Assembly: GCF_013167455.1 (NCBI RefSeq)
Contig: NZ_CP038328.1
Source: Escherichia coli O157:H7
GTDB lineage: Bacteria > Pseudomonadota > Gammaproteobacteria > Enterobacterales > Enterobacteriaceae
Length of the DNA: 64,000 bases
Direction: 5' to 3' (one strand)
Positions 46,901-49,900 of this stretch are shown here, piece by piece. Every line of letters starts with the position of its first letter. Positions within the stretch are counted from its first letter, which is position 1. The position numbers are program-made.

Positions 46901-49900
46901 TATCACCACGCGGGAGGAATTAACCGAGGCCAGTAATGAACTGTTCTCTTTGATTGCCAGCGGTGTGATTAAGGTCGATGTCGCCGAGCAGCAGAAATAT
47001 CCGCTGAAGGATGCGCAGCGTGCGCATGAGATTCTGGAAAGCCGCGCGACGCAAGGTTCCAGCCTGTTGATTCCATAAAAGAAATAGGGCTTCCACCTGG
47101 GAAGCCCTTTCTTTTTATAGTTCGGCTGTATGTAGGGTACAGCACGATGAATCTGTTAGAGGCGCAATAGTGACAGATTTGATTATCAATTCCTATTTTG
47201 TTCTAAGGATAAAACCTTAGGTTGTGATCATCCGCACAATCCCTTAGTAACGCCAGCGGTCATAACGCTGATATTTCGGCACTTTTGGTGCTTTAATCGC
47301 CTTAATAACCCACACCACCGCAATCGCCAGGAGTAACCACGGCAGCAACTTAATCATCAATGCCAGCATACCGCCGAGGAACATAATGGCCGTCGCCACA
47401 ACCAGCGCGGCGATAATGCCCAGCAACGAAACGCCGGTGACCATCAACATGACAAAAAAGCCAATCACAAAAAGTAGTTCCAGCATGATGCTCTCCCAAA
47501 TATGAAATCTCTTGCAGGCATTACAAGAATCATGCCAAAAATAATCTATTGATTTAACAGCAAAACGCCCCGCGACGGTGCGCAGGGCGTGGTGAATTTG
47601 ACTACTTTTTGGTGAAAAGTTAACGCTTATCCGCCACCAGTTTGAGCGCGTGTTCCAGCACGTTAATGTCTGCACCCGCTTTATGGGCATTTTCACTTAA
47701 ATAACGCCGCCACTGCCGCGCGCCAGGAATACCCTGGAACAAGCCCAACATATGCCGGGTAATATGGCCAAGATACGTCCCCTGGCTGAGTTCACGCTCA
47801 ATGTACGGATACATGGCGCGCACTACCGCCACCGGATCGGCATCGGTATCCGAGGAACCAAAGATCTCTCGGTCTACCGCCGCCAGAATACCCGGATTCT
47901 GATACGCTTCGCGCCCGACCATCACGCCATCCATATGTTGCAAATGCGCTTTAGCCTCTTCCAGCGACTTGATACCACCGTTAATCGACATCGTCAGATG
48001 CGGAAAGTCACGCTTCAGTTGATACACACGCGGATAATCGAGCGGCGGGATTTCACGGTTTTCTTTCGGGCTTAACCCCGAAAGCCAGGCTTTACGTGCG
48101 TGGATGATGAACATCTCACACTCGCCTTTGCCGGAAACGGTGTTGATGAAATCGCAGAGAAATTCATAGCTGTCCTGGTCATCGATGCCAATACGCGTTT
48201 TCACCGTCACCGGAATCGACACCACATCGCGCATCGCTTTCACGCAGTCGGCAACCAGCTGCGCATTACCCATCAGACACGCACCAAACATGCCGTTCTG
48301 CACCCGGTCAGACGGGCAGCCGACATTCAGGTTGATCTCATCATATCCACGCGCTTCTGCCAGCTTCGCACACTGCGCCAGCGCCGCCGGATCGCTACCG
48401 CCGAGTTGCAACGCTACCGGATGTTCTTCTTCACTGTACGCCAGGTAATCACCTTTACCGTGAATAATCGCCCCTGTAGTCACCATTTCGGTATACAGCA
48501 ACGTATTGCGGGAAAGCAGACGCAAGAAATAGCGGCAATGTCTGTCCGTCCAGTCGAGCATGGGAGCAATGCTAAACCGAGAATTCCAGTAAACACCAGT
48601 TTTTTCAGGCATCACGCTGGTTTGATTAATTTTTAGTGTTTCATGATTATCGTGCATTTTTGAACATTTCAGGCTATTTTTCTCGCGTTAGGTTCCCGCA
48701 CAGGTTCCCACGTTTTATGGGAACCCGAAATAACGAGGTCGTGTAATGGCGTACTATAACATAGAGAAACGACTAAAATCCGATGGCACACCACGCTATC
48801 GCTGTAATGTGATTATCAAAGAAAAAGGTGTTATCACTTACAGGGAAAGCAAAACATTCCCTAAACATGCTCATGCCAAAACATGGGGCACACAGAAAGT
48901 GATGGAATTAGATCTATATGGCATTCCATCATCAAATGCAGTTGACGGACTTACAGTCCGTGACTTACTACACAAATATTTAAATGACCCAAATGCCGGA
49001 GGTAAAGCAGGCCGTACTAAAAGATATGTGCTGGAACTGCTTATGGATAGTGACATCTCCGCGATCAAACTATCTGAACTGACAGAAAATGACGTAATTG
49101 AACATTGCAGGCTAAGAAACAACGCTGGTGCAGGTCCAGCTACAGTTAGCCACGATGTTAGTTATCTTGGCAGTGTTCTGGATGCTGCCAAACCTGTATA
49201 TGGAATTAATTACACATCAAACCCAGCGAAAAGCGCTCGCCCATATCTACTTAAACTTGGTTTGATTGGTAAATCAAACCGTCGTAATCGTAGACCAGCA
49301 TCTGATGAACTGGACATGCTCATTGAAGGCCTTCAACAACGATCTACTCATAAATGCTCAAAAATTCCGTTCGTTGATATCCTCAAATTTTCTGTGTGGT
49401 CCTGTATGCGGATCGGAGAAGTATGCCGGTTACGATGGGAAGATCTCGACCAGGAACAAAAATCTATACTCGTAAGAGACAGGAAAGATCCACGCAAAAA
49501 GGAAGGCAACCACATGAAAGTAGCCTTGCTTGGGGAAGCCTGGGATATCGTCCAACGACAGCCCAAAAAATCGGAATTCATTTTTCCATATAACAGCACT
49601 TCTGTTACTGCAGGATTTCAGAGGGTAAGAAGCAAATTAGGTATTAAAGATCTGCGATACCATGATTTGCGTAGAGAAGGGGCAAGTCGCTTATTTGAGG
49701 CTGGTTTTAGTATTGAGGAAGTCGCTCAGGTTACAGGGCATCGTTCATTAAACGTGCTATGGCAGGTATATACCGAACTGTATCCGAAATCTTTACATAA
49801 TCGTTTTGAAGAGCTCCAAAGGAGCAGAAATAAGACCTCTTGACACTGTTTATCCATACAGTTAAAAATAATACTGTATACAAACACAGTATAGAGGGAC

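Follow-up and report, generated by a model that had tools for sequence, protein, structure and literature searches.

Known dusA-associated elements

The closest described systems are genomic islands that insert into the 5' end of dusA, and Farrugia et al. (2015) defined the dusA-associated integrases of such elements (PMC4482086). According to that paper, the dusA 5' end of carriers is island-derived and excision restores the native gene. The paper also reports a prtN homologue in 64% of dusA islands, which hence is not obligatory, and lists the integrase of mEp460 among the dusA-associated integrases. A second system is the Stx2 phage 1720a-02 (Phi-stx2dact, KF030445) in Citrobacter rodentium, which integrates ~100 bp into dusA (Balasubramanian et al. 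2019, PMC6328086). It has a 7-base core and an in-frame phage "dusA-prime," and attP formed only with Int (PMC6328086). Integrases that act at the 3' ends of tRNA, tmRNA, or protein genes (P4-like elements; SGI1 at trmE) likewise spare the target by carrying a copy of the gene end in attP, but they restore a 3' end, whereas here it is the 5' end that is replaced. Therefore, a dusA element must also come with its own promoter, ribosome-binding site, and start codon.

We analyzed a stretch of 64,000 nt from Escherichia coli O157:H7 (contig NZ_CP038328.1), hereafter the window. A mEp460-like lambdoid prophage in the dusA 5' end has almost certainly replaced the first 32 codons of the gene and its upstream region with its own look-alike sequence. 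As in the dusA islands, the integrase gene is divergent and beside the dusA 5' end, a new gene end is supplied by the element, the original lies at the far end, and both semi-conserved att repeats and a prtN homologue are present. The integrase is related to a named member of the family. The replacement end is seen in the window and in phage attP sites, and the displaced end in strain UTME-1 and 11 other sampled genomes. The direct repeat of dusA-associated elements (~21 bp) corresponds here to a core of 8 exactly matching bp that is flanked on either side by imperfect similarity. Relative to PMC4482086, whose experiments were in Acinetobacter and Pseudomonas, nothing essential differs.

The resemblance to phage 1720a-02 extends to the DNA itself, with 98.1% identity to the window int/attP region over 1.35 kb. 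The 19-nt attB string TCCAGTCGAGCATGGGAGC of PMC6328086 occurs verbatim at 48549-48567, and the 7-base core of 1720a-02 falls within the same sequence as the core in the window. The two differ in host species and in cargo, which is stx2 in 1720a-02 and type III effector genes (nleG7/espS) here; the visible portion of this prophage contains no stx. That the prophage may excise as a circle and so restore native dusA has indirect support, from free phage genomes with an intact attP and from the demonstration for 1720a-02. Since the mechanism is published (PMC4482086, PMC6328086), the proposal of a phage-supplied dusA front end is correct but not new; the biology of hybrid dusA genes is established, and this case adds little alone.

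An identity break inside dusA

The dusA gene of the window is a 345-codon open reading frame on the minus strand (47620..48657). Relative to dusA of K-12 (NC_000913, b4049), we found 19 differences in nt 1-96 and 16 in the 942 positions of nt 97-1038, a markedly uneven spread (Fisher p = 5e-12). The initial annotation had stated that the N-terminal residues differ from K-12 while the body is conserved. This is borne out: all 10 amino acid changes fall in residues 3-30, and the remaining 315 residues have none. The drop in identity at the 5' end is just as sharp, with the break at nt 96/97, against dusA of prophage-free strains, to which the 5' region is therefore not identical: O145 RM9873-C1 differs from the window at 19/96 and then 7/942 positions, and E2865 at 19/96 and then 15/942.

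One could ascribe these differences to ordinary allelic variation, in an N-terminus under little constraint and with no link to the neighboring prophage. The first ~25 residues of DusA do lie outside the conserved fold, and most of the changes are non-synonymous, as this explanation would have it. However, prophage-free strains carry the K-12-type end, and identity among K-12-type strains is 97.7-100% in this segment, so the difference is not an ordinary polymorphism. We give this explanation practically no weight, and it is in any case refuted by the phage matches and the attP alignment (see below).

Upstream of the start codon, similarity to K-12 disappears. Ungapped identity over 200 nt (48658-48857, reaching into int) is 23.5%, i.e., at random level, and GC content falls to 36-43% across 48500-52500. 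The gene can be divided into three parts. The host-derived body (nt 105-1038 of the hybrid gene; 47620..48553, minus strand) is 98.3% identical to K-12 and at most 99.3% identical to prophage-free STEC, with no amino acid change. It is followed by the 8-bp crossover core ATGCTCGA (48554..48561, minus strand; dusA nt 97-104, in codons 33-35, M-L-D), which is common to attB, attP, and both junctions, and is the only stretch identical in the K-12, window junction, far-end junction, and phage attP sites. Codons 1-32 form the phage-derived replacement 5' end (48562..48657, minus strand), which is 80% identical to K-12 and adjoins int in free phages. Between dusA and int is a phage-derived leader of 88 bp (48658..48745) with no similarity to the K-12 upstream region.

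Everything from 48562 rightward, comprising the 5' look-alike, the leader, and the integrase, is prophage-derived DNA, and the left prophage boundary lies within dusA (48554-48561) and not at the start of the integrase gene. The initial annotation had placed the island-derived segment at 48612-48745. It was right about the origin but too narrow in extent, as that span covers the leader and only codons 1-15, whereas the phage-derived segment begins at 48562 and takes in codons 1-32.

The attachment site in phage genomes

Megablast of 48450-49900 against 50,697 phage records returned 10 records that align rightward from window positions 48552-48557, including mEp460, Lys8385Vzw, SKA5, 1720a-02, and PhiR40_1. 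The phage alignments begin exactly at TCGAGCAT (48554-48561). Lys8385Vzw is 100% identical across 48554-49900, and the dusA 5' look-alike adjoining int is 100% identical to the window in Lys8385Vzw, 98% in SKA5, and 91% in mEp460. In SKA5 it is annotated as a 40-codon "tRNA-dihydrouridine" CDS. mEp460, Lys8385Vzw, and SKA5 have the same integrase as the window, the same attP with the dusA look-alike, and the same DinI-like neighbor; the difference is that their records are of free or extracted phages and the window is of an integrated one.

In mEp460 and SKA5, the match lies inside the record, and the sequence can therefore be followed through the whole of attP. Its order is an int-side arm with the dusA look-alike, ATGCTCGA, and a second arm, TAGGATGTACCGTTTTTGAAAAACAA. 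The initial annotation held both the dusA 5' end and the upstream junction to be island-derived, and the free phages, in which the two arms meet at this 8-bp core, agree with this. Overall, the interpretation that the phage supplied the front end of dusA is supported. The same evidence speaks against allelic variation, in that the variant segment and leader occur together in free phages and the identity break coincides with the attP core.

In the Lys8385Vzw record (locus L005, ~1493-1508), the 8-bp core is present twice in tandem, ATGCTCGAATGCTCGA. The duplication is most likely an artifact of circularizing prophage coordinates that include both core copies.

The reciprocal junction in related genomes

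A direct-repeat search of the 64-kb window found no dusA 5' copy. The prophage continues past base 64000 and its far end is not in the window, so we read the far junction in related complete genomes; the displaced dusA fragment is thus known only from close relatives, and the best 24-kb genome matches are 98.3-98.8% identical. Among complete genomes, UTME-1 is the closest, with 100% identity over 48300-49900. The displaced native dusA 5' fragment, which was predicted to lie at the far end of the island, is found there: at the far prophage end of UTME-1, ~50 kb from dusA, RefSeq annotates a pseudogene, "tRNA-dihydrouridine synthase, missing C-terminus." The fragment consists of K-12 upstream DNA and dusA nt 1-104 identical to K-12, followed by the far arm of the phage.

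When K-12 attB is aligned with the window junction and the UTME-1 far end, the three show the reciprocal pattern that site-specific integration should produce (attB x attP = attL + attR); in this three-way alignment, the window dusA matches K-12 from nt 97 on, is 80% identical before that, and is unrelated upstream of the ATG. When phage attP sites are added (six-way alignment), the same exchange pattern is seen and the switch falls inside dusA nt 97-104. In addition to UTME-1, the displaced fragment breaks at nt 104 in all occupied K-12-type genomes sampled (4 + 7). VTB96815v, a B2-type host of a related prophage, has its own, different displaced 5' fragment that likewise ends at the core.

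Also considered was import of the dusA 5' end from another species by homologous recombination, with the integrase merely adjacent. An identity of 80% does look like that of an inter-species allele. Across 100,044 species (one genome each), however, this type of 5' end was found only in an Escherichia genome that has the same integrase and in Salmonella diarizonae, where part of an integrase gene adjoins it, and import does not account for a reciprocal far-end junction in which the displaced native fragment is fused to a phage arm. We consider such import extremely improbable.

Instead, the best explanation is a ~50-kb mEp460-like lambdoid prophage that its dusA-associated tyrosine integrase has inserted into the dusA 5' end. 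The phage attP contains the 8-bp core and, on its int side, a 96-nt copy of dusA codons 1-32, the leader of 88 nt, and an extended -10-like element. Through recombination at the core, the host promoter and the first 104 nt of dusA move to the far prophage end, where they are left as a pseudogene, and host dusA nt 105-1038 are fused in frame to the phage copy. Given this in-frame fusion, an intact 345-codon dusA remains.

Among 5,426 complete E. coli genomes, about 729 have the integrase and dusA junction, 3,638 have an uninterrupted K-12-type junction, and 1,043 have an uninterrupted B2-type junction. For annotators, this means that dusA in ~1/7 of complete E. coli genomes is a host-phage hybrid, accompanied by an orphaned second 5' fragment ~50 kb away.

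The prophage of UTME-1 is probably defective, judging from its gene content (locus L001, 39978-41191 and 20135-22719): IS1203 splits a helix-turn-helix gene of the early region, and the portal and tail-fiber genes are frameshifted. With the IS insertion and these frameshifts, the prophage copy may no longer excise or form particles. At its far end (locus L002, 3762-3773 and 2525-3428), the displaced native promoter-like element and the dusA 5' fragment point into the prophage, and two small same-strand genes of unknown function lie ahead of the displaced fragment. Host-driven read-through from the displaced promoter-like element into the prophage is possible.

Integrase and leader motifs

The dusA-associated tyrosine integrase (48746..49843, plus strand; 365 aa) is identical to mEp460 Int at 360 of 365 positions. 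It matches Pfam PF00589 (E = 1.5e-20) as well as PHROG integrase families. The int start codon (48746) and the dusA start (48657) are 88 bp apart, and the genes are divergent. The RHRH tetrad and nucleophilic Tyr of tyrosine recombinases are present, with candidate catalytic residues R222, H306, R309, H332, and Y342; these were assigned by motif positions rather than by alignment to a reference structure. Near the far prophage end, UTME-1 and mEp460 encode a PrtN-family protein that matches a PHROG "excisionase" family (E = 1e-39) and is predicted to be the excisionase or directionality factor.

The leader contains three copies of the motif RGGYTCCCR (48690-48698 and 48702-48710, plus strand; 48718-48726, minus strand), which are the only matches in the 64-kb window. 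Two more copies lie 50-70 bp from the core on the opposite side of attP (UTME-1, L002 3514 and 3525; mEp460, L004 1439 and 1450). These repeats are candidate arm-type Int sites. Copies 2 and 3 (48702-48726) form an inverted repeat of AGGTTCCCA, 7 nt, and TGGGAACCC. In Escherichia sp. MOD1-EC7003 (L012, ~117-141), both arms have changed together, to AGGTCCCCA / TGGGGACCC, and complementarity is kept. This paired change, a single event, could reflect a hairpin or a symmetric protein site.

An extended -10-like element directed toward dusA, TATGTTATAGTA (TGnTATAGT), was noticed only via conservation across loci. It is at 48752..48763 on the minus strand and overlaps int codons 3-6 on the opposite strand. 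The 12-mer TATGNTATAGTA at this position is the sole match in the window (0.01 expected by chance), and exactly one copy occurs upstream of the dusA 5' end in 15 of 15 loci (L001-L015), whether the end is native/ancestral, K-12-type, or phage-type. The phage thus seems to bring a promoter look-alike too, and the TGTTATAGT element is predicted to drive the hybrid dusA. Neither the leader repeats nor the conserved TGnTATAGT was found in the available part of PMC4482086.

Beyond a shared 16-mer, local alignment of the K-12 and phage leaders is marginal (7 of 300 shuffles reach the score). Rfam scanning of 46500-51000 gave one sub-threshold match only, to CssrB (24 bits vs. a gathering score of 76), which we take as chance.

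Predicted function of the hybrid DusA

Alignment of DusA to the solved Thermus enzyme 3B0P begins at residue 26, and most of the replaced residues therefore belong to an extension beyond the conserved fold. Within the fold, the replacement covers only RFS[V/I]AP (strand beta-1), residues that are kept in every variant examined. Fourteen codons differ in the replaced segment, and 10 of the 14 changes are non-synonymous, so most of the segment appears weakly constrained. The hybrid DusA is predicted to be active.

Alternatively, the phage copy may be only attP sequence and the hybrid dusA unexpressed or inactive, making lysogens effectively dusA mutants. A scan of 48450-48900 for sigma-70 -35/-10 promoters and terminators found nothing, purifying selection on codons 1-26 is weak, and published work infers function from sequence alone, all of which would fit this possibility. 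However, the frame is open in all variants examined, among them K-12-type and B2-type ends and four phage-type ones, and the beta-1 residues are conserved throughout. In addition, a conserved TGnTATAGT precedes all native and phage-borne dusA 5' ends in the loci compared, and a 96-nt in-frame copy far exceeds the ~21 bp needed for att recognition. Loss of function in lysogens is thus unlikely, and an active hybrid enzyme is the preferred reading.

Origin of the K-12-type dusA start

There are two unrelated "native" dusA 5' ends in E. coli, K-12-type and B2-type. The zur-dusA interval of K-12 (locus L003, 5005-6773) contains a yjbL-yjbM insert with 35% GC, and dusA has a 15-codon extension. B2 strains such as E2348/69 (locus L007, 5800-6016) are without yjbL-yjbM, and dusA directly follows zur with a shorter, unrelated 5' end, MPAESHTVYPAYRFSIAP. 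The B2-type 5' end and leader are homologous to those of Salmonella Infantis, so this end is probably ancestral. The difference between K-12 and B2 dusA ends at the att core. Identity of the K-12-type end to the B2 type is 33%, compared with 80-82% to the phage copies; the S. houtenae and S. diarizonae 5' ends match it at 79-82%.

Given its resemblance to the phage-borne copies, the K-12-type end may itself be a relic. Specifically, the "native" dusA 5' end of K-12 and ~80% of E. coli, including the AT-rich, E. coli-specific yjbL-yjbM insert upstream, could be what remains, now fixed, of an older dusA-targeting element, a proposal for which we see an even balance of likelihood. Copying of the K-12-type end by phages would account for the distances just as well. 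Speaking against a relic, searches of the K-12 zur-dusA interval found no integrase remnant (tblastn E = 0.76), with blastn matching only the 5' coding copy, and no RGGYTCCC motifs or arm repeats. No displaced B2-type dusA fragment is present beside zur in K-12, and the K-12 and B2 sequences cease to be similar 62 bp ahead of the B2 start codon. Surveying the zur-dusA interval across E. coli, we detected no variant with extra integrase-sized DNA and no intermediate architecture.

If the K-12-type end is a relic, mEp460-like phages swap one phage-derived front end for another, and B2 strains keep the ancestral gene start. More broadly, an integrating element would then have permanently replaced the promoter and N-terminus of a core housekeeping gene in most E. 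coli. Where the K-12-type gene start came from is the one lead worth following, and would matter more for studies of gene evolution.

The loci of S. houtenae (L009, 2680-2900) and S. diarizonae (L013, 2395-2580) have a phage-type dusA 5' end and a decayed int-dusA leader. Only the first 30 codons of a dusA-type integrase remain (tblastn E = 9e-8 and 4e-7), an Acinetobacter-like alcohol-dehydrogenase gene follows the integrase remnant, and the displaced native dusA fragment is almost wholly deleted. These two loci are clearly fossils of dusA-targeting elements.

YjbM was also considered as phage cargo. This was rejected, as tblastn gave no match in the 50,697 phage records. The 141 YjbM homologues identified are all E. 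coli-type proteins, with none outside E. coli, and so offer no intermediate locus, and the PHROG matches of YjbM probably stem from over-extended prophage boundaries.

Other prophage genes

Following the integrase is a DinI-like prophage gene (49905..50153, plus strand), so annotated in UTME-1, mEp460, Lys8385Vzw, and SKA5. The rest of the lambdoid prophage in the window (50154..64000), as read from open reading frames and co-linear UTME-1 annotation, comprises nleG7, an espS pseudogene, and genes for a side tail fiber, Lom, J, tail assembly, and the tape measure protein. The type III effector cargo lies between dinI and the tail fibers, with nleG7 at 50747-51397 and the frameshifted espS at 51622-52496, by the same co-linear annotation. 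G+C-rich, collagen-like tandem repeats occur in the side tail-fiber gene (53146-53444), and their number differs between strains, as the window and UTME-1 are out of register from 53445. Elsewhere in the window, a low-GC patch (30-39%) at 40500-42000 lies to the left of tyrB/alr, in chromosomal DNA with an otherwise 50-55% GC content.
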